Assembly (NCBI GenBank): GCA_964552475.1
Contig: CAZKFZ010000001.1
Location: 128,621-192,620, forward strand
Direction: 5' to 3'
From: an uncultured Candidatus Saccharibacteria bacterium
GTDB lineage: Bacteria; Patescibacteriota; Saccharimonadia; CAILAD01; BJGX01
Length of the DNA stretch: 64,000 nt
Every line of letters starts with the position of its first letter. Positions within the stretch are counted from its first letter, which is position 1. A model generated the notes under the pieces. It did no database searches, had not been told where the DNA came from, and saw only the letters and a program-made list of their open reading frames with translations. The position numbers and the translations under genes are program-made. Below, in pieces: positions 27,413-56,729 of the stretch.

Positions 27413-27465
27413 ATCCCTTCACCCTCCTTAAAATTTTGATTGATTTTTATTTAACTTATCCATAA

Positions 27466-27513
27466 GCCCATATATAGTGCTTATGTTACATCTAAATACA
27501 CTATATATAGGTA
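27466..27513 (-). promoter_or_regulatory. Two NrdR-box-like palindromes in the nrdA leader
   Basis: Box 1 at 27466-27481 (reverse complement AGCACTATATATGGGC) and box 2 at 27498-27513 (ACACTATATATAGGTA) are related to the NrdR consensus acaCwAtATaTwGtgt. Centres are 32 bp apart, which is the typical tandem NrdR operator geometry. Confidence 0.5.
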
Positions 27514-27582
27514 TTTGTTCTTAGTCAACTAGCTGTATTGCGCCAATAAAACAGACTATTTGATAAAATAGTTACTACGAAC

Positions 27583-27612
27583 ATAATACGAAAATGCCCC
27601 CTATTTTGTCAA
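27583..27612 (-). promoter_or_regulatory. Near-consensus sigma70 promoter on minus strand upstream of nrdA (TTGACA-18 bp-TATTAT)
   Basis: Minus-strand TTGACA (plus 27607-27612) and TATTAT (plus 27583-27588), ~170 nt upstream of the nrdA ATG. Confidence 0.45.
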
Positions 27613-27774
27613 GTGAATTGGCTTAAGCACTAGCGGCAAAGCATTAAGCACCCCACAAAAACAAAAGCTTACGATTAATAATAGCCCAAAACACAAATAT
27701 TTGTCTAGCATTGATATTTTGTGAATTTTAGTTTAAAAATACTATCTACAGATATGAGTTATAGTTTTATGCAA

Positions 27775-38084: not shown

Positions 38085-38151
38085 ATACATATTTGTATAG
38101 ACTACATCATATCTTTATGATATAGTTTGTAGCACCATACCAGCCAAAGAC

Positions 38152-38427
38152 ATGGGGATATCAGTAGGTATGAGTAAACACACAACGCCTGAGCTACACC
38201 AAAGACGTCTTACTAAACTTAGTAAGATTATCCAAAGACTAGAGAAGGGTAGTATTTCAAAAAGTGACAAGCAAGATCTACAGATAATTGCTGGTCACTA
38301 TGGTGTAGATCAACCAACTTGTAGTGTAGAAAACATGTATCTGACATGGGCTAAAACCATTTCTGGAGAGATAAGCTCTCATATTCGATCTCTACAGTAT
38401 CATCCCGCAGCAATGTCAACCAACTAA
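38152..38427 (+). CDS. Hypothetical small protein (91 aa)
   Basis: ATG 38152; ends 7 nt before a strong intrinsic terminator. Confidence 0.35.
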   Translation: MGISVGMSKHTTPELHQRRLTKLSKIIQRLEKGSISKSDKQDLQIIAGHYGVDQPTCSVENMYLTWAKTISGEISSHIRSLQYHPAAMSTN

Positions 38428-38431
38428 ATAC

Positions 38432-40524: not shown

Positions 40525-40589
40525 CTAGGCAACTATTTTATAGAAAGTTTATTCCGCTCCACGCTAGCAATGGGTAAAAAAATTCGCTA

Positions 40590-40633
40590 ATATGAAAAGC
40601 AGACCTGCCGTACGAATCGAACAGATCTGCTTA
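40590..40633 (-). terminator. Intrinsic terminator of the candidate sRNA
   Basis: 11-bp stem with a G.U wobble on the minus strand, a 14-nt loop, and a 3' U-tract (plus 40590-40597). Confidence 0.5.
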
Positions 40634-40823
40634 TCACACCCTTTCATACCCCCAAAGAATTGGGATTTGTCAGTCTCATAATATATAAATAGACCGTGGT
40701 GATGAAAGGGAGTAATCTGCTAGCGAGAATCTAAAAGGAGGGTGAGTTTTAGACCTTGCCTCGACTAGCAGATTACTCCCTTCAATAAGTAAAAGAGCAA
40801 TAAAATATAAAGTTTTTGATTCG
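40595..40823 (-). ncRNA. Candidate novel small RNA (~230 nt) bounded by a near-consensus promoter and an intrinsic terminator
   Basis: Minus-strand promoter TTGACA-17 bp-TACAAT (plus 40830-40858). A 20-bp long hairpin (GGGAGTAATCTGCTAGtCGAG / CTCGcTAGCAGATTACTCCC) encloses a 7-bp apical stem with CUCACCCUCC loop. The terminal 11-bp hairpin AAGCAGAUCUG...CAGGUCUGCUU pairs with a G.U only in the minus-strand transcript (C.A on plus) and is followed by UUUUCAUAUU. No convincing ORF inside. Confidence 0.5.
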
Positions 40824-40829
40824 ACAAGT

Positions 40830-40858
40830 ATTGTATCACGCTAGTGCTTATTTGTCAA
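40830..40858 (-). promoter_or_regulatory. Near-consensus sigma70 promoter on the minus strand (TTGACA-17 bp-TACAAT) driving the candidate sRNA
   Basis: Plus-strand tgtcaa at 40853-40858 and attgta at 40830-40835. Confidence 0.5.
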
Positions 40859-40913
40859 TACCTTTTACAGGGTATTTTTTATATAGCTTATGCTTCTCTG
40901 ATAGAGCAGAAAT

Positions 40914-41867: not shown

Positions 41868-44183
41868 ATGGCAAAAAAATTACTCATAGTAGAATCACCG
41901 GCCAAGGCTAAAACAATCGAGAAGTATCTGGGCTCAGACTACCAGGTACTTTCTAGCTATGGACACATACGAGATCTGCCCAAGAGCGGTATGAGCATTG
42001 ATATTAAAAACAACTTCGAGCCCACCTACGAAATTCCCGCTGATTCTAAAAAGACAATTTCTGCGCTCAAAAAGGCTGTAAAAAACAAAGAGGTATTTCT
42101 TGCCACCGATGAAGACCGCGAAGGGGAGGCAATTAGTTGGCATTTGTGCGAAGCACTTAAGCTTGATTATAAAACCACTAAACGTATAGTGTTTCACGAG
42201 ATCACCAAAGAGGCTTTAGTTAGCGCTGTAAGTAACCCCCGTACGGTTGATATTAACCTTGTAAATGCCCAGCAGGCTCGCCGGGTGCTTGATAGATTAG
42301 TGGGTTATGAGCTAAGCGAAGTTATATGGAAAAAAATACGGTATGGTCTGAGTGGTGGTCGTGTTCAGTCAGTTGCAGTTCGCCTAATATGCGAACGAGA
42401 GAGCGAGATTGAAGCCTTTAATGCAAATTCTACTTTTAAAGTAAGTGCGGAGTTTAATCTAGGAAAAGATGGTGTGTTACTGGCTGAACTAAAAGATAAG
42501 ATACCTTCCAAAGATGAAGCAAAGCAATTACTTGAATTATTAAAGAGCACAAAATATACAATAACGTCAGTAGAGAAAAAACCCGGTAAAAAATCTCCAT
42601 CGCCACCATTCACTACCTCAACATTACAACAGGCGGCTAGCTCTCAATTAGGCTTTTCAGTACGTCAAACCATGGTGGTTGCTCAAAAGCTTTATGAAGC
42701 CGGTAAAATTACCTATATGCGTACTGACTCACTCAACCTTTCTGATAGTGCTATCAAACAAGCTAGTAGTGTAATAAGATCAAATTTTGGTAATAAGTAC
42801 TTAAAAAATAGACATTTCAAGGCTAAATCGGCTAACGCCCAAGAAGCACATGAGGCTATTCGTCCAACTGATTTTTCTGAAGAGTTAGGTAGTGATGATT
42901 CTGGCCAACAACGCTTATATAAGCTTATTAGAGCACGGGCTTTAGCCTCACAAATGACTGATGCCGAAATCGAAAGATCGGTTGTAACCATTAATTTAAA
43001 CAACTCTGAGTACGTTTTTATTGCTAGGGGTGAGATTGTTGTTTTTGATGGTTTTTTAAAAGTTTATGGCAAGATGATAGAAGATGTTATTCTCCCACCA
43101 CTAAAAGATGGGCAGTCTCTAGATATAAAAAAGGTAACGGCTCGCGAGACCTTCGATAGGCCACCATCTAGGTATACCGAGGCAAGTTTGGTAAAAAAAT
43201 TAGAGACTGAAGGAATAGGTCGCCCAAGTACTTATGCTCCTACTATTTCAACCATACAATCTCGTGGATATGTAGAAAAAGCCAGCCGTGAAGGTGAACC
43301 GCGTAACGTAAATGTAATTACATTAGAAAACAAATCTGTAAACGAAGTTGTTGAACAAGAAAACTTTGGTGTAGAAAAAAACAAATTGTTTCCAACCGAT
43401 ACTGGGAGAGTGGTAAATGATTTTATAGTGAAGTATTTTCCGACTATAGCTGATTATAAGTTCACCGCTAAGGTAGAGGGAGAGTTTGATAAAATTGCCC
43501 AAGGCCATGAAAAATGGAAAACTATGATAGCTAATTTTTATAAACCATTTCATGAACTAATACTTAAAACCGAGGATGTTACACGCCAAGATGCCAACAA
43601 AGGAAGAGAACTAGGTAAAGATCCTAAATCTGGTAAACCGGTAATCGCTAGATTGGGTAAGTATGGGGCGATGATACAAATAGGACAAGCAGAAGACGAA
43701 GATAAGGGCGAGGGCAAACCAAAATTTGCTTCTATGCCAGCCGGTAAAACAATAGAGAGCGTCACTCTTGATGAAGCTTTAGAGATGTTTAAATTGCCAA
43801 GAGATCTAGGTAAGACAAAAGACGGCAAGGATGTTGTTGCGAGTATTGGTAGATTTGGGCCATATGTAAGGTTTGATAATACCTTTGTATCTATTAAAGA
43901 CGAAGATCCATTTACTATTACGCATAAAAAAGCCCTAGAATACATCGCTGCCAAGCAAAAAGCCGATGCCGAAAAAATAATTACTGATTTTAAAGACGAA
44001 GGTATACAGATATTGAATGGTCGCTATGGTCCTTATGTAACAGATGGAGAAACCAACGCTAAAATACCAAAAGACGTTGATCCTAAAACACTATCGGCAA
44101 AGTCAGCTCAAGAAATTATCGCAAATAAACCAAGTGGAAAACGTTCTAAGAAAACAACGTTAAAGAAAAAATCTAATAAATAG
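41868..44183 (+). CDS. topA: DNA topoisomerase I
   Basis: TOPRIM N-terminus (LLIVESPAKAKTIEKYLG...GHIRDL), the catalytic Tyr region, C-terminal Zn-ribbon-less repeats and a Lys-rich tail; 771 aa. The dprA-topA linkage is conserved in many bacteria. Confidence 0.95.
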   Translation: MAKKLLIVESPAKAKTIEKYLGSDYQVLSSYGHIRDLPKSGMSIDIKNNFEPTYEIPADSKKTISALKKAVKNKEVFLATDEDREGEAISWHLCEALKLDYKTTKRIVFHEITKEALVSAVSNPRTVDINLVNAQQARRVLDRLVGYELSEVIWKKIRYGLSGGRVQSVAVRLICERESEIEAFNANSTFKVSAEFNLGKDGVLLAELKDKIPSKDEAKQLLELLKSTKYTITSVEKKPGKKSPSPPFTTSTLQQAASSQLGFSVRQTMVVAQKLYEAGKITYMRTDSLNLSDSAIKQASSVIRSNFGNKYLKNRHFKAKSANAQEAHEAIRPTDFSEELGSDDSGQQRLYKLIRARALASQMTDAEIERSVVTINLNNSEYVFIARGEIVVFDGFLKVYGKMIEDVILPPLKDGQSLDIKKVTARETFDRPPSRYTEASLVKKLETEGIGRPSTYAPTISTIQSRGYVEKASREGEPRNVNVITLENKSVNEVVEQENFGVEKNKLFPTDTGRVVNDFIVKYFPTIADYKFTAKVEGEFDKIAQGHEKWKTMIANFYKPFHELILKTEDVTRQDANKGRELGKDPKSGKPVIARLGKYGAMIQIGQAEDEDKGEGKPKFASMPAGKTIESVTLDEALEMFKLPRDLGKTKDGKDVVASIGRFGPYVRFDNTFVSIKDEDPFTITHKKALEYIAAKQKADAEKIITDFKDEGIQILNGRYGPYVTDGETNAKIPKDVDPKTLSAKSAQEIIANKPSGKRSKKTTLKKKSNK

Positions 44184-44312
44184 CGTTGACCATATAGAAC
44201 TAAAGTGATATAATTGAATTAAGTTATTAGTTTACAGATAGAGATATGTTTTTTATACCTGTAGATAATATGTTAAAACCACTCACTTTTTTAATCAAAG
44301 GAAACAATTTTA

Positions 44313-45380
44313 ATGCAAAATAAGTCGCAAAGTGTAGATAAAAAACAACTCGATTCATTGATTTCGGAGAGTTTAGATCTACTAAAAAAAGATCGCGATC
44401 GAGAAATACTATTACGTAGATATGGTGTGGCTACTGGTAAAACTCAAACTCTAGAACAAATAGGTAGAGACCTTGGTATAACCAGGGAGAGAGTGAGACA
44501 GATAGAAAAAGCCGCACTTACCAAGATACGTGAACAAGCCAAGCACGATCACGAACTTAGTAATATATTGGTTGCTATCACCGACAAAAGGGGTGGAATA
44601 ATTGGTTTTGCGTCACTTGTTAATGAACTTGGTTTAGACGGTAAACTAAGACCACACCTTAGCTTTCTATTAAAACTTAACCCAAATTTTACATTTCTAG
44701 ATAAGAACGATCAGCACGCTGATTTAGTCTTTTTAAGTGATAGCTATAAAGAAGATGGAGTGCGTAAGTTGCACGATCAGATAATTACTGTTGCAAGAGA
44801 AAATGGTAAACCGGTTAAATTTGATAAGCTTGTCGGTAAAATAGAGGGCGAAAATAAACCTGAAGCTCTAGAAGAATTGGCTACCGCTAGCACTCAACTA
44901 GCCAATCTAGATAATGTATGGGGTCTAAGCATTTGGCCAGAAGTAAACCCTAAGAGTATAAGAGATAAAATATATTTAGTACTAAAAAAGGGTGGAAGAC
45001 CAATGCATTTTACTGAAATTTCTACAAAAATAGCAGTAATGCCAGCAAATCCCAAGAAAGTTACAACCCAAGCGGTACATAATGAACTTATTAAAGATAG
45101 TCGCTTTGTACTAATTGGTCGCGGTATCTACGCACTAGGTGAATGGGGTTACCAAAGTGGTACGGTCGCTGATATAATAGAGGAGATCTTGCGCGAAAAC
45201 TCACCGATGAGCAGAGAAGATATTATTACCAAGGTATTAGCGCGAAGACAAGTAAAAACTACAACTATCACTCTTAACCTACAGGAAAAGCCACAATTTG
45301 AACGCACAAGCAAAGGATTTTATCAACTCAAAAAAGGATATACTGCAACCGGAGTTAAGAGTAGTCGCGGCGGACGATAG
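44313..45380 (+). CDS. Sigma-70 region 4 HTH fused to a C-terminal HARE-HTH domain (unusual architecture)
   Basis: N-terminus GKTQTLEQIGRDLGITRERVRQIEKAALTKIRE is sigma region 4.2. The C-terminus KKGGRPMHFTEISTKIA...RFVLIGRGIYALGEWGY matches the HARE-HTH pattern of RpoE-delta type (RF..G.G.Y.L.EW). No sigma regions 2 or 3. Confidence 0.6.
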   Translation: MQNKSQSVDKKQLDSLISESLDLLKKDRDREILLRRYGVATGKTQTLEQIGRDLGITRERVRQIEKAALTKIREQAKHDHELSNILVAITDKRGGIIGFASLVNELGLDGKLRPHLSFLLKLNPNFTFLDKNDQHADLVFLSDSYKEDGVRKLHDQIITVARENGKPVKFDKLVGKIEGENKPEALEELATASTQLANLDNVWGLSIWPEVNPKSIRDKIYLVLKKGGRPMHFTEISTKIAVMPANPKKVTTQAVHNELIKDSRFVLIGRGIYALGEWGYQSGTVADIIEEILRENSPMSREDIITKVLARRQVKTTTITLNLQEKPQFERTSKGFYQLKKGYTATGVKSSRGGR

Positions 45381-45456
45381 GTATTTACTAGTCCATATTA
45401 GACAATTTTGTATATTTTCACATATTAAGAAAACTAAGTTCTTCTTTTAGCACCTC

Positions 45457-48177
45457 ATGAACGACATTATTTCATTAATTTCAACATTTTTTTCAGTAAT
45501 AGGCACCATTCTTTTTCAGTTTTGGGGTTGGACGCTTATTGCCGCTTACTTGGGATTTTTAATCTGGAAAAATAATAGTAAGAAAATAGAATATCTACAA
45601 AATTCTGACTTCAGTCTATTACATATTGTAATACCTAAAGACAATGAAAAAAAAGAATTGTCTGCAGAGCAAATGTTTGCTAGCTTACATGGCATATTAC
45701 AGCCTACAAGTGAATTAGAAAAGGAGAGGCGAATACAAGACCATATAAGCTTCGAGATAGTTGCTCGCGACCAGGTGATACATTTTTATGTCTGGACCCC
45801 TACTAATTTGAAGGATTTTGTAAGTAGTCAAATTTATGCTCAATACCCATCTGTACAAATAAGTGAGATGAAACACGATTATACCAGCCAAGAGGGGCTC
45901 GACCCCAATCATGTATATTCTACAGAAATAACGCTTATGAAGGATGAAATATTTCCAATTCGTACCTTTCAAACTTTTGAAGTAGACCCTTTGGCCGGAC
46001 TCACCACTGTCCTGGCATCACTATCAGATAACGAACAGATGTGGATACAATTCTTAATGGAGCCGGTCGATGACAGTTGGCACAAAAAAAGTCTTAACTA
46101 TATAAATGAAGTTATTAATGGCAAAAAGCCTAGTCGTTTTGAAAACTTAGGAAGCAAAACCGTTGGCTATGCTAAAGCGTTATCTGTTCCACCAAGTGTA
46201 CAGGCTGCAGATGCCAAAAAACCCGATAAAAAAGAACTCACACCCGGCCAAACTACCCTAAACTCCGCTATTGAAACTAAGGCAGAAAAACTTGGTTATG
46301 CAGTAAAAATACGAGCCGTATATGTAGGGGAGAGTGATGCTGCAGCAAAAACCCGTATGCAAGCCTTGGTAGGAGGATTTAAACAGTTTAATACTATTAA
46401 TTTAAATGGTTTTACTAATACCGGACTGTTAGCGGGCGACACAGCCCTAGAACAATACCAATTGAGAGAGTTTGAGGATGCTGGCTATGTTCTAAATATT
46501 GAAGAGATCGCCAGCCTATACCACTTACCACACACCAGTGTAGAGACACCAGGTGTAGCCTACACCAGCACAAAAGTAGGGGAGCCACCTAGTAACCTGC
46601 CAACTATTAACAACACTCCTGCAGAGGATATAAGCTTGTTTGGAGTTACTACTTTTAGGCAAGCCAATATGAAGTTTGGTATAAAACGTGAAGATCGTAA
46701 ACGACACATGTATATTATTGGTAAGTCTGGCAGTGGTAAATCATTTTTACTCAATTTGCTTACACTATCAGATATTTATCACAACGAAGGCTTTGCGGTA
46801 GTTGATCCGCACGGTGACTACGCTCAAGATATGTTGCGGTATATACCAGAACATCGGCTCGAAGACGTAGTATACTTTAATCCTGCTGACGGAGAGTTTC
46901 CAGTGGCGTTCAACCCTATGGAGGTTTATGATGTGAATCGCCGTAGCAACGTCGCTTCTGAAATTGTGGGGGTACTCAAAAAAATGTTCGGTGATAGTTG
47001 GGGACCACGGCTTGAACATATTTTACGCTACACACTACTGGCACTTCTTGAGACACCTAATACCACACTGCTAGGTATCACCCGTATGCTCACCGACAAA
47101 AAATATCGTAATGAAATCATCGGCAACGTAACCGACCCTGTAGTGAAGGCGTTCTGGGTGAATGAGTTTGCCAGCTGGAATGATAAGTTTGCATCAGAAG
47201 CTGTAGCTCCGGTTCTAAATAAAGTTGGGGCGTTTACAGCCAACCCACTTATACGAAATGTAATTGGACAAGAAAAGAGTACCTTTAGTATTCGTAAAAT
47301 GATGGATGAAGGTAAAATTTTAATAGTAGACCTAAGTCGCGGTAAGATTGGTGAAGACAATGCTAGTATACTTGGTAGTCTGCTAATTACAAAAATTCAG
47401 CTTGATGCTATGAGTCGTGCAGATATTCCAAATATTGACGATCGTAGGCCATTTTACTTATACGTAGATGAGTTTCAAAACTTCGCTACCGAGAGTTTTG
47501 CAGTAATTCTTTCTGAGGCACGTAAATATGGTCTTTATCTTACCGTTGCAAACCAATACATAGCTCAGATGCCCGACGAGGTCAAAGATGCCGTTTTTGG
47601 TAATGTTGGTAGTATGATTACTTTTAGGGTGGGTGCAGACGACGCCACTAGCCTGAGTCGTTATTTTGAACCAGTGTTTGAACCTTTAGATTTGGTTAAT
47701 CTAGACAAGCAAGATATATATGTCAGTATGAGTATCGATGGACAAACCAGTCTACCTTTCTCGGCTAAAACTCTTTTTGTGCCCAAAACACCAGCCGATC
47801 ACTCTAGTAAAATTCTAGAACTTAGTAGGAATAAATACTCTAGTGGACGAGCTAGCGTAGAAGAATCAATTGCCGCCTGGAGTGGTATGGAAGAGGGAAA
47901 ATCAGCGAGTGATAATAACGAAAATACAAAAACCGAACAAAAGATTTCTGGAACTGCTGCTAGCCTACCATCTCTAAAAGTGAGTGGTGCAGAGCCCAAA
48001 AAGTATAGCGAGATGGTAAAAGGTAAAAGCCAAGCAATTAGTAACCGTAGAAACGAACCTTACAAGCCTGATCAAAGCAAAGGCAACCCGACGAACAATA
48101 ACAAAAAAACTGGCAATAACTCAAACAACCACCAAGGTGGTCACAATAAACCTTTCTACCCCAAAAAGAAAAACTAG
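45457..48177 (+). CDS. Membrane-anchored VirD4/TraD/TraG-like type IV coupling protein ATPase with extra ~390-aa N-terminal domain and low-complexity C-terminal tail
   Basis: Two N-terminal TM helices. Walker A IIGKSGSGKSF, then VVDPHGDYAQDML...FNPADGEFPVAFNP (compare F TraD: IVDPNGDML...ILNPYD). Walker B FYLYVDEFQNF, then ARKYGLYLTVANQ and TFRVGADDA, typical of TraG/TraD C-terminal region. N/K/G-rich tail. Confidence 0.7.
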   Translation: MNDIISLISTFFSVIGTILFQFWGWTLIAAYLGFLIWKNNSKKIEYLQNSDFSLLHIVIPKDNEKKELSAEQMFASLHGILQPTSELEKERRIQDHISFEIVARDQVIHFYVWTPTNLKDFVSSQIYAQYPSVQISEMKHDYTSQEGLDPNHVYSTEITLMKDEIFPIRTFQTFEVDPLAGLTTVLASLSDNEQMWIQFLMEPVDDSWHKKSLNYINEVINGKKPSRFENLGSKTVGYAKALSVPPSVQAADAKKPDKKELTPGQTTLNSAIETKAEKLGYAVKIRAVYVGESDAAAKTRMQALVGGFKQFNTINLNGFTNTGLLAGDTALEQYQLREFEDAGYVLNIEEIASLYHLPHTSVETPGVAYTSTKVGEPPSNLPTINNTPAEDISLFGVTTFRQANMKFGIKREDRKRHMYIIGKSGSGKSFLLNLLTLSDIYHNEGFAVVDPHGDYAQDMLRYIPEHRLEDVVYFNPADGEFPVAFNPMEVYDVNRRSNVASEIVGVLKKMFGDSWGPRLEHILRYTLLALLETPNTTLLGITRMLTDKKYRNEIIGNVTDPVVKAFWVNEFASWNDKFASEAVAPVLNKVGAFTANPLIRNVIGQEKSTFSIRKMMDEGKILIVDLSRGKIGEDNASILGSLLITKIQLDAMSRADIPNIDDRRPFYLYVDEFQNFATESFAVILSEARKYGLYLTVANQYIAQMPDEVKDAVFGNVGSMITFRVGADDATSLSRYFEPVFEPLDLVNLDKQDIYVSMSIDGQTSLPFSAKTLFVPKTPADHSSKILELSRNKYSSGRASVEESIAAWSGMEEGKSASDNNENTKTEQKISGTAASLPSLKVSGAEPKKYSEMVKGKSQAISNRRNEPYKPDQSKGNPTNNNKKTGNNSNNHQGGHNKPFYPKKKN

Positions 48178-49030
48178 TAGTAGTTTTACTATAAAAAAAA
48201 TAAGTAAGCTATATAGGCTAAAAGTAGGGGAGTAAAAACAATTATAGCTCTGATCCCCCATAAAACAGAATAATCGTTCAGACAACCGGCGATGATTCGT
48301 GAAGGGTATTGAAGTATATGATTTAAAACACAAAATCTATTTTACGTAATCAATCCATCTCCCCTATATTATTGCTATTTGATTAAAACTTCATGTGATC
48401 ATTTTATATGTTACTTTATATATACCTTTAATATAATTTAGTATGATTGTCATTATGAATCTCGTTTCAAATAAATATTTCTCTTAAATGTTTCCCATAC
48501 TATTACTAAAGAACAACTAAGAATAGATTGTCAGTAAAAAGAATGCTGCTATTACTTAAATAAAGTGGATAAAGAGAAGTTTCATAGAATACATAGGTAT
48601 AATTAATCAAGTCTAGTGCATAATATACTTAGTCGCACAATGTATATTTTGCGTCGTATTAAGGTATTATACTTAAAATACGTATTTATATTTTAAACAT
48701 ATTTTTTTTATGATTTTTTCTCTATTTGCTCCCCTCTCTAGTATAAGCTTAGATAATCAATTCTATTGTTAACACCATGTATTTAACTAAATACATATAC
48801 ATACAAAAACCGAACGTAATATAAAAGTGAATTGAGGACGTATTTAGCTAGATCTAAATAACTAAGTACTATATATTATAAAAAATGCCAAAGCCTAAAT
48901 GACTAAAGTATCTATACTTAAGACTTTTATCCGTAATTATATTAGGTTAAAAGTTATCCACAGTCGAATTATAGGGTCGCAAAATAGCTGTAGTATATTT
49001 TACAATAATACCCTCACCGTCTCGCTTCCC

Positions 49031-49852
49031 CTACTTGTAGAATACCCTACCATTAATACGTAGATCTATATATTCTTTAGGCGCTTTATTTTGTTTTTTT
49101 AGTTCATCAAGTACCGTCACTAGGTCGGTTAACTGCTCGCCCACTGGCCTGGTAGTATCAAATCGTATCTTGTAACCCTGTTGAGTCAGTACAAATAACT
49201 CCGTCGTGGTTTCCTGAACTTGGTACTCAGCGACTTTAACCCCATTTTCAGGTAGTTTAGCATGGAGTTGTTCTACAAAAGCCACAAAGCTTTCGGCTAG
49301 AGCTACCTCCCCTGTTTTTACCGGCAAGTTGGATGTATCTACCACTGTTGGCAAGCTACCCTTTAATTCTTCGCTTGGTTCCCCACTGTACGCATGCCCA
49401 TTACTTGAGAAAACTGATATTACATTGCCGGACTTCCAAAGCAAACTCGGCTTTTGTTCGGTTATTGTTACTTTTAGCTTATTTGGGTATATTCGGTCTA
49501 TTTTCGTATTTGCTATCTGATAATTATTTTTCTTGAGTTGGTTGTCGACATTCTGTAACGATGCGAAAAAGATGTTTTGCGAGATTGGCGAACCGCCAAT
49601 AATCTCCATTACCTGAGTTCTTATAGTTGACTCAGCTACCGTTTGGTTGCCGACTACCTCTATTTTTTGAATTCTAAAAAAACTAGAAGCTACTACAAAG
49701 TAAAAAACAAATCCAAAAACCGTGATATATATAATTGGTCGAATAAATCGCTTGGGAGTTGACTTAGATTTTTCTTTTTTGACTTGTTCTAGTTTCTTAT
49801 ATCCAACCTGATTAGAGTTGGTTACTCTTCTTACCCTTCTGCGCTCCTTCAT
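49031..49852 (-). CDS. ftsQ: Cell division protein FtsQ/DivIB-like
   Basis: Basic N-terminus, single TM (IIYITVFGFVFYFVVASSFF), then a POTRA-like region (IQKIEVVGNQTV...); located after murG in the division cluster. Confidence 0.6.
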   Translation of the reverse strand: MKERRRVRRVTNSNQVGYKKLEQVKKEKSKSTPKRFIRPIIYITVFGFVFYFVVASSFFRIQKIEVVGNQTVAESTIRTQVMEIIGGSPISQNIFFASLQNVDNQLKKNNYQIANTKIDRIYPNKLKVTITEQKPSLLWKSGNVISVFSSNGHAYSGEPSEELKGSLPTVVDTSNLPVKTGEVALAESFVAFVEQLHAKLPENGVKVAEYQVQETTTELFVLTQQGYKIRFDTTRPVGEQLTDLVTVLDELKKQNKAPKEYIDLRINGRVFYK

Positions 49853-56385: not shown

Positions 56386-56427
56386 GTCAAGGTTACCTAT
56401 TCAGCAGTCAGTTGTGTGTTTTTATAT

Positions 56428-56448
56428 TTGTTTTTTGTTTTTTGTTTT
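56428..56448. repeat. (TTTTTTG)n tract in the 344-bp mraZ-rsmH spacer
   Basis: ttttttgttttttgtttta. Confidence 0.5.
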
Positions 56449-56729
56449 AAATTTATCTGCAGTTGCAGACAATAGTGTGACAAGGACTTAATAAAATAAG
56501 TCCTTATAAGTAGAGATAGTTTGTGAGGTGGAGTTTTATGTTGCATGTACGTACTAGAGTATTATTTTACGCGTCACCCTCCAATAAACGCGTACTGACT
56601 GCCAAATAGTTAACTTTGATTTTTGTATTTTTTTGAACTTTTTGTTTTTATTTTGTTATTAATGAGCGATTGTCTTTTATATAGATTTTCATCTAGTAAG
56701 ACCATCATATAGACTGCCGATAAGCGGAA

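Follow-up and report, generated by a model that had tools for sequence, protein, structure and literature searches.

The window analysed here, a 64-kb stretch of DNA, belongs to a member of the Saccharibacteria (TM7); two Saccharibacteria metagenome-assembled genomes encode proteins that share 92% and 64% identity with its FtsQ. Downstream of ftsQ lies a non-coding spacer of 853 bp (48178-49030), on which two blocks of genes converge. This spacer probably contains a dif-type site for Xer recombinases (core at 48630-48657), set in a conserved module of accessory DNA, a reading that we hold with moderate confidence. Judging by its sequence and its distribution, the dyad that forms the core is best explained as the site at which chromosome dimers are resolved in Saccharibacteria and other Patescibacteria.

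The dyad and the conserved spacer around it

The genomes of Saccharibacteria are about 94% coding, so a conserved non-coding region of 850 bp itself deserves an explanation. A first-pass annotation of the window had pointed out a long spacer between the plus-strand gene block and the minus-strand division block, and this is indeed the largest intergenic gap in the 64 kb (the runner-up has 389 bp). Some of the accompanying figures need adjustment: the GC content is 27.4% rather than roughly 25% (38% for the window), and the other convergent gaps, given as 1-40 bp, include two of 281 and 175 bp. The spacer was also described as free of open reading frames (ORFs) of 60 codons or more. This holds except for an ORF of 70 amino acids (aa) with a TTG start (48121-48333, minus strand), a mechanical call without family match, which overlaps the left edge.

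The succession of ftsQ, a spacer of 405-1442 bp and a convergent gene for a TrwB-like ATPase is found in all ten Saccharibacteria relatives retrieved (10/10). In the relative whose FtsQ is 92% identical (locus L001), the spacer has 830 bp, and the alignment shows near-identical islands separated by stretches without similarity. This means that neutral positions have reached saturation and that selection acts on the islands. The order of ftsQ, a spacer of 405-1127 bp and the convergent ATPase gene was also seen in eight more relatives, reached through FtsQ homologues of 37-66% identity. The relatives examined do not have ftsA-ftsZ at this position and share the same layout, which is therefore an old and stable arrangement, not a recent scar. 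On these comparisons the spacer is conserved and is not junk.

The dyad is the best-conserved element of the spacer. On the plus strand, positions 48630-48657 read TAGTCGCACAA TGTATA TTTTGCGTCGT, with two arms that agree at 7 of 11 positions (by eye) on either side of a 6-bp centre; this is the architecture expected of a dif site, in which partly symmetric arms of about 11 bp enclose a centre of 6-8 bp. On the minus strand, the inner dyad is GACGCAAAA-TATACA-TTGTGCGAC. The part of it that had been noticed at first reading (CGCACAA-TGTATA-TTTTGCG, 48634-48653, with a 6-bp centre) is exactly as it was described. The 28-bp core is 100% identical in L001 and has two mismatches in another relative, L002. 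In the 11 Saccharibacteria spacers (11/11), down to 37% FtsQ identity, the dyad has the same orientation relative to ftsQ, and it is also present upstream of xer in three other loci (L131-L133). There is one copy in the 64 kb and one per locus examined.

The two arms are not equally conserved. This was observed in 14 loci which were retrieved through FtsQ or Xer, without using the motif. One arm is invariant, whereas the other occurs in the versions GTCGCAAAA, GACGCAAAA, GTCGTAAAA, GTCGTCAAA, TTCGTAAAA, TACGTAAAA and ATCGCAAAA, with 14 changes in all, none of which forms a compensatory pair with the invariant arm. An invariant arm facing uncompensated changes in the other is the asymmetry known from dif sites, in which the XerD-type arm is better conserved than the XerC-type arm without base-pair covariation, and not the signature of an RNA hairpin.

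Linkage to xer genes and comparison with known sites

Metagenome contigs were scanned with the exact pattern CGCAAAA-N6-TTGTGCGACTA, which is found in at least 120 Patescibacteria contigs, one site in each. The central 6 bp are lineage-specific (GTATTA, GATACA, GCTACA, GTTACA). A tblastn search with a site-adjacent recombinase located an Xer-like gene 260-1860 bp from the site in 70 of 123 loci; 32 of the 53 loci without such a gene have less than 1.5 kb of flank on the relevant side, which gives 70 of 91 testable loci. The linked xer gene is always on the same side and the same strand relative to the asymmetric dyad. The test was also carried out in reverse, with three Xer homologues on long contigs (L131-L133) chosen regardless of the motif. 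All three have the dyad in an upstream gap of 625-783 bp, and two of them carry variants that fall outside the search pattern, the change being in the variable arm.

The linked recombinase has about 310 aa. It obtains equal scores with the NCBI models for XerC and XerD, below both cut-offs, and 125-130 bits with the XerS model (cut-off 267), but passes the cut-off for XerA_Arch (221-228 bits vs 220). Its homologues are attributed by their sources to Microgenomates, Shapirobacteria and Woesebacteria. The Xer-linked loci (for example L061 4560-6058 and L131 7908-9375) have in common the order yebC, a 256-aa DUF5656 membrane protein, the module, optionally a HAD-like gene, xer, and convergent gyrA-gyrB. 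The 256-aa membrane protein and the HAD-like protein (221 aa) are without NCBIfam match.

Loci without an adjacent xer mostly have the dyad in a convergent gap, as in L053, where nine plus-strand genes face four minus-strand genes, and in L119; some of these gaps have 33-150 bp. Since the dyad persists in convergent gaps without xer, it functions on its own and not just as an operator of xer.

The site is like the dif sites of E. coli and B. subtilis, which are used by XerC/XerD, in its 11-6-11 layout, its partial dyad symmetry and the unequal conservation of its arms. It is also the sole copy in the DNA examined and lies between convergent genes. The inner 18 bp (GCACAATGTATATTTTGC) match 14 of the 18 positions of what we take to be the E. 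coli dif sequence, including the TGTATA centre, and the inner sequence CGCAnAA-TGTATA-TTnTG resembles it. The outer arms differ, however, the linked recombinase falls below the equivalog cut-offs of XerC and XerD, and the site is located inside a conserved non-coding module of about 0.4-1.4 kb with a DnaA box.

In the single-recombinase systems XerS/difSL and XerH/difH, dif is kept beside the recombinase gene (PMC5357621). As in streptococci and lactococci (XerS/difSL) or Helicobacter and Campylobacter (XerH/difH), most Patescibacteria sites form a module with one xer gene, which they shortly precede and relative to which their orientation is constant. But the distance between site and gene is 0.3-1.9 kb, often with a HAD-like gene in between, the centre has 6 bp compared to 11 bp in difSL, and the recombinase is XerC/D/XerA-like, not of the 355-aa XerS type or the XerH type. 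Moreover, the Saccharibacteria site is unlinked to xer.

The cer site is 280 bp long; its core has 30 bp, its accessory DNA about 180 bp, and a 70-nt RNA is transcribed from a promoter inside it (PMC5357621). Sites of the cer/psi type have some 160-180 bp of accessory DNA in a fixed position next to the core, and the accessory proteins bound there make the reaction selective for resolution. The site described here is similar to cer (ColE1) and psi (pSC101) in that a core is combined with long non-coding accessory DNA. A conserved motif stands about 165 bp away, on the side of the variable arm, and the DNA that separates it from the core is rich in A-tracts; this arrangement recalls cer and psi by resemblance only. 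In contrast to these plasmid sites, it is chromosomal, and its motifs are unrelated to the sites of ArgR, PepA and ArcA. Its dependence on the accessory DNA is putative.

Archaeal XerA is a single recombinase which acts on a 28-bp site and does not need FtsK (PMC5357621). The linked recombinase is similar in that it passes the XerA_Arch cut-off, but the host here is a bacterium, and ftsK is annotated in TM7x. We recognised no resemblance to archaeal dif sequences, for which no comparison was run.

Accessory motifs and neighbouring genes

Features of the spacer and its flanks (positions in the window)
Feature	Position	Strand	Remarks
Non-coding spacer	48178..49030	none	module between two convergent genes, conserved in relatives
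28-bp dif-like core, 11+6+11	48630..48657	-	reads ACGACGCAAAA TATACA TTGTGCGACTA; in 11/11 ftsQ-downstream spacers
Invariant arm TTGTGCGAC	48632..48640	-	putative XerD-type role; 0 substitutions in 14 loci
6-bp centre TATACA (+ strand TGTATA)	48641..48646	-	TATACA in 9, TAAACA in 2 Saccharibacteria loci
Variable arm GACGCAAAA	48647..48655	-	putative XerC-type role; seven variants in 14 loci
Accessory motif GTTCGGTTTTTGTATG	48800..48815	-	GTTCGGTTT invariant in 11/11 loci
GTTCGGTTTTTGT, spacer copy	48803-48815	-	strong copy
GTTCGGTTTTTGT, second perfect copy	47926..47938	-	inside 3' end of ATPase gene; same orientation as spacer copy
GTTCGGTTATTGT, inverted near-copy (1 mismatch)	49456..49468	+	inside ftsQ; encodes TITEQKP on the ftsQ strand
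Perfect DnaA-box 9-mer TTATCCACA	48954..48962	+	sole perfect copy in 64 kb; 0.64 expected by chance
Near-perfect DnaA box TTATCCACT	48564..48572	-	not conserved in L001
ATTATAGG, then third half-site GTCGCAAAAT	48968..48985	+	perfect GTCGCAAAA at 48976-48984; kept in L001
AGGGGA box	48226..48231	+	TCCCCT (+ strand) also at 48360-48365, 48730-48735, 49027-49032
TrwB/VirD4/HerA-like P-loop ATPase with DUF8128, 906 aa	45457..48177	+	left flanking gene; synteny kept in all Saccharibacteria loci
ftsQ	49031..49852	-	right flanking gene; last of the mraW-ftsL-ftsI-mraY-ftsW-murG-ftsQ block (division and cell wall)

The core is accompanied by several shorter motifs, of which GTTCGGTTTTTGT and a third GTCGCAAAA half-site are additions to the elements listed in the first-pass annotation. 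In 10 of 11 loci, GTTCGGTTT/GTTCGGTTTTTGT sits 162-171 nt upstream of the core, on the side of the variable arm, and the A-tract-rich DNA between the two is not conserved. A TTCGG motif is found at -171 in a subgroup of the Xer-linked loci, and 200-500 nt away on the other side elsewhere; its strand in the Xer-linked loci is the same in 44 cases vs 3. The three strong copies of GTTCGGTTTTTGT in the window are all within 1.5 kb around the dyad, with none elsewhere in the 64 kb, and relatives have a same-strand copy 287-715 nt past the core. The two copies inside coding sequences both encode T-x-T-E-Q-K. The one in ftsQ (GTTCGGTTATTGT) is kept in relatives, for which conservation of the peptide may be the reason.

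Both DnaA boxes reported at first reading exist, with corrected positions: the perfect box was given one base off, and the near-perfect one lies at 48564-48572. One perfect DnaA box in 64 kb is at chance level, and its significance therefore rests on its conservation in relatives. Of the 11 Saccharibacteria spacers, 7 have it at the corresponding position, and a perfect box is found about 170-230 nt from the core, on the plus side, in 30 of 66 dereplicated metagenome loci. The near-perfect box, judged by its loss in L001, is probably non-functional.

The Xer-linked modules use the same vocabulary of motifs as the spacer of the window (CCTATAAT/ATTATAGG and GTCGCAAAT). In related modules, GTCGCAAAT stands 17 nt before CCTATAAT, with flanking GTGAAAA repeats and the palindrome CCTATAATTATAGG. 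GTGAAAA was considered as a parS half-site and rejected, there being no full palindrome.

The repeated CCCCT motifs that had been noted before are borne out by the counts: TCCCCT/AGGGGA is enriched in the spacer, with three boxes vs 0.16 expected at window density. These boxes are conserved only in the closer relatives (L001, L002, L123 and L124). Seven of the 12 AGGGGA sites of the window are at most 2.4 kb from the dyad, and six point to it (46326, 46578 and 48226 on the plus strand; 48730, 49027 and 49308 on the minus strand). The longer AGGGGAG faces the spacer in six of six occurrences outside it (four on the plus strand to the left, two on the minus strand to the right), while inside the spacer one of three faces the wrong way. 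Its interpretation as a polar motif similar to the FtsK-orienting polar sequences (KOPS) was dropped, since the numbers are tiny and confounded by gene strand and by Shine-Dalgarno-like sequences.

The order and the orientation of the motifs vary between lineages, and the dyad is inverted relative to them in Saccharibacteria. Given this shifting order and the lack of a consensus RNA fold (see below), the motifs are taken as protein-binding sites. By analogy with cer and psi, GTTCGGTTTTTGT, the DnaA box, the third half-site and the TCCCCT boxes may serve as accessory or architectural sequences.

On the left of the spacer, the ATPase gene is preceded by genes for topoisomerase I and a sigma70_r4/HARE-HTH protein (44313-45380), the latter a candidate for binding GTTCGGTTTTTGT. 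The order dprA, topA, sigma70_r4/HARE-HTH, DUF8128/TrwB-like ATPase (41868-48177) leads into the dyad, and from topA onward it is common to the Saccharibacteria relatives whose loci extend that far (L123, L126-L130). The last three of these genes encode a topoisomerase, a DNA-binding protein and a member of the FtsK-HerA ATPase superfamily, and their position beside a dif-like site could reflect a functional link. Farther along, L123 carries another TrwB-like ATPase.

In three relatives, the dyad is separated from the ATPase gene by an insert of one or two small unannotated genes and more GC-rich DNA (L002 7804-8163, L124 6579-7232, L125 6659-7757). Integrating elements that make use of Xer would leave such variable cargo beside a dif-like site; in the spacers of L002, L124 and L125, the insert is not flanked by a second dyad. 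Elsewhere in the window, intergenic gaps of 340-390 bp are found at 40525-40913, 27413-27774, 38085-38431 and 56386-56729, and these are long for such a genome.

Replication terminus, alternative explanations and significance

The site of the window is likely located at the replication terminus. The convergence of the genes is suggestive: 34 of 41 genes to the left of the spacer are on the plus strand, and 16 of 17 to the right on the minus strand. The skew is no proof of it. Cumulative GC skew has its maximum at 48029, but this peak is largely an effect of gene strand. At third codon positions, the minus-strand genes on the right resemble the plus-strand genes on the left and differ from the minus-strand genes on the left, as a terminus predicts; the per-gene comparison of AT skew at these positions between right and left minus-strand genes gives p=0.008 and is the sole significant test. 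Total GC skew had been considered as evidence of a terminus (a left-minus-right difference in 15/15 loci), and this argument was withdrawn, as third positions show no reversal in strongly skewed loci. Regarding the dif or terminus region proposed at first reading, the dif part is thus favoured by conservation, xer linkage and arm asymmetry, and the terminus part is suggestive only.

Several observations weigh against the reading of the spacer as a dif-type site at a terminus. The GC skew at third codon positions (GC3 skew) is weak when tested per gene (p=0.08 for left plus-strand vs left minus-strand genes, p=0.28 for right minus-strand vs left minus-strand genes). In L130, which has the same synteny, it is +0.36 to +0.55 on both sides, with no reversal at the site. 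L123, a closer relative, is not antisymmetric either and shows no reversal. In the Xer-linked loci L107, L122 and L131-L133, it is about 0.4-0.55 on both sides, for genes of both strands. In addition, tblastn with Xer found no xer gene near the site, either in the whole window or in the loci of the 10 Saccharibacteria relatives. The arms of the metagenome matches (at least 120) are fixed by the search pattern, so that the unbiased view is that of the 14 loci only. Finally, the presence of about 800 bp of accessory DNA and a DnaA box beside the core is no feature of any described chromosomal dif. A Pfam scan of 40 ORFs of the window found none for Xer, FtsK, DnaA, FtsA or FtsZ.

In complete Microgenomates genomes (order UBA1400), the skew never reverses, for which the proposed explanations are an origin next to the terminus or replication in a single direction (PMC7143001). 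Skew in such genomes is therefore uninformative on this locus, which explains in part the missing reversal in the Xer-linked loci. L130 may be a Saccharibacteria-like lineage with the same monotonic pattern. In a complete Saccharibacteria genome, the skew has the normal two arms, the origin lies between dnaN and dnaA, and replication is bidirectional (PMC6031116).

The spacer might instead encode one or several small non-coding RNAs, the conserved blocks being their promoters or functional sequences, for instance a CU-rich anti-Shine-Dalgarno RNA. We find this doubtful. A small RNA could also coexist with an Xer site, like the Rcd RNA in cer, which has its own promoter for a 70-nt RNA (PMC5357621). 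The Xer-linked modules have a promoter-like arrangement (GTCGCA, 17 nt, CCTATAAT) flanked by GTGAAAA direct repeats and followed by variable small hairpins, and the conserved CCCTCCTCCCCT box often pairs, by eye, with downstream G-runs. In the window, AGCTATAATTG (48239-48249, minus strand) directly precedes TTTTACTCCCCT and a T-run. However, RNAalifold found no consensus structure on either strand of the two best-conserved segments, namely the block from GTGAAAA to CTCCCCT, taken from 29 loci, and the segment from GTTCGG to the dyad, taken from 10: there are no pairs on the plus strand of the segment, and its minus strand forms only a trivial dyad hairpin without any compensatory pair. The changes in the dyad arms are uncompensated as well. 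Rfam has no gathering-score match to the spacer or in 13 related loci; a scan of the whole window gave tRNAs, and a permissive scan of the spacer gave matches at chance level only. The spacer contains no terminator-like site, and four promoter-like sites compared to 6.4 expected from shuffled sequences. The variation of motif order with lineage is more in keeping with modular protein-binding sites than with a single RNA of fixed layout. The non-coding RNA suggested in the first-pass annotation is thus left with neither a conserved fold with covariation nor a described RNA family.

We consider it unlikely that a transcription factor, or Xer as its own repressor, uses the dyad as an operator in an otherwise ordinary regulatory region. 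Inverted repeats with a variable spacer are typical of the sites of dimeric proteins, and in most Patescibacteria loci the dyad is upstream of an xer operon, or of a HAD-like gene and an xer operon, with GTCGCA at a -35-like position relative to TATA-like hexamers. But in the window and in all its Saccharibacteria relatives both flanking genes point inward, and neither needs a promoter there. The dyad is also kept where there is no xer nearby, including in some of the very short convergent gaps mentioned above, and the strong asymmetry of its arms is unexpected for a homodimeric operator.

Equally hard to credit, and given a very low probability here, is the idea of the spacer as an origin of replication, alone or together with the terminus, where DnaA would bind TTATCCACA next to iteron-like repeats and AT-rich DNA would unwind. 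The box is the only perfect one in 64 kb and is kept in part of the relatives and of the other loci, the DNA is AT-rich, and related modules contain direct repeats (CTATATCAaaCTATATCA, and GTGAAAA twice). The close origin and terminus proposed for Microgenomates with monotonic skew (PMC7143001) would fit as well, with a GC3 skew of about 0.5 on both sides of Xer-linked sites. A bacterial oriC, however, is marked by a cluster of DnaA boxes, an AT-rich unwinding element, usually the proximity of dnaA or dnaN, divergent genes and a skew minimum. In the spacer there is a single conserved box, which is missing in 4 of 11 Saccharibacteria spacers, the genes converge on it instead of diverging, and the cumulative skew has a maximum. 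A scan of 40 ORFs of the window found neither dnaA nor dnaN, both are also lacking up to 10 kb from the module in L131-L133, and the origin of the complete Saccharibacteria genome lies between these two genes (PMC6031116).

The last alternative, a decayed mobile element such as a miniature inverted-repeat transposable element (MITE), or the scar or pseudogene of a lost ftsA and ftsZ, is largely refuted and has next to no probability left: the DNA is AT-rich and ORF-free, sits where ftsA-ftsZ follow ftsQ in a canonical cluster, and is bordered by a 14-nt inverted repeat (48218-48231 and 49027-49040, 93% complementary), but the right arm of this repeat, which starts at 49027 and not at 49029 as first given, consists of the last ftsQ codons and the stop codon, and the pair is one of 46 comparable ones in the region and absent in the 92%-identical L001, hence at chance level. 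A MITE is characterised by terminal inverted repeats, target-site duplication and multiple copies, and self-BLAST finds no second copy of the spacer in the window. A search of the phage database gave no match to the spacer, and six-frame fragments contain no remnant of a Pfam family. The rearrangement scar also envisaged at the outset disagrees with a layout of ftsQ, spacer and ATPase gene that persists in relatives with as little as 37% FtsQ identity and includes islands on which selection acts.

If the spacer is a dif-type Xer site, subunits of an Xer-family tyrosine recombinase would bind the two arms of 9-11 bp. Two copies of the site, which would be present only in a dimer of sister chromosomes, would be brought together, and the dimer would be resolved at division by an exchange of strands where the arms border the 6-bp centre TATACA. 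This would occur where the two gene blocks converge, in Saccharibacteria most likely the replication terminus.

A broader proposal, which we regard as speculative and rather improbable, is that the module is a compact nucleoprotein locus which organises the end of the chromosome cycle across Patescibacteria. It would combine the Xer core, cer-like DNA of fixed spacing, polar GTTCGGTTTTTGT motifs on both sides and the DnaA box, and in Microgenomates with non-reversing skew, where the module lies by xer and gyrBA, origin and terminus would be the same place. The polar GTTCGGTTTTTGT motifs flanking the core could be sites of fork arrest or of loading. If this is true, the module in Microgenomates without skew reversal would mark a coinciding origin and terminus, and the chromosome would be replicated in one direction.

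Patescibacteria (the candidate phyla radiation, CPR) represent a large share of bacterial diversity, and our search of the literature found no published dif site for Patescibacteria or Saccharibacteria and no description of their dimer-resolution site. The 28-bp consensus GTCGCAAAA-N6-TTGTGCGAC would provide a one-line marker of the terminus for the curation of metagenome-derived genomes. It would also be a candidate attachment site for integrating elements, and a substrate for the biochemistry of the XerA-like recombinase. As for the non-reversing skew of Microgenomates, a question raised in 2020, the module makes it testable: its position in the complete genomes concerned can be set against coverage profiles.

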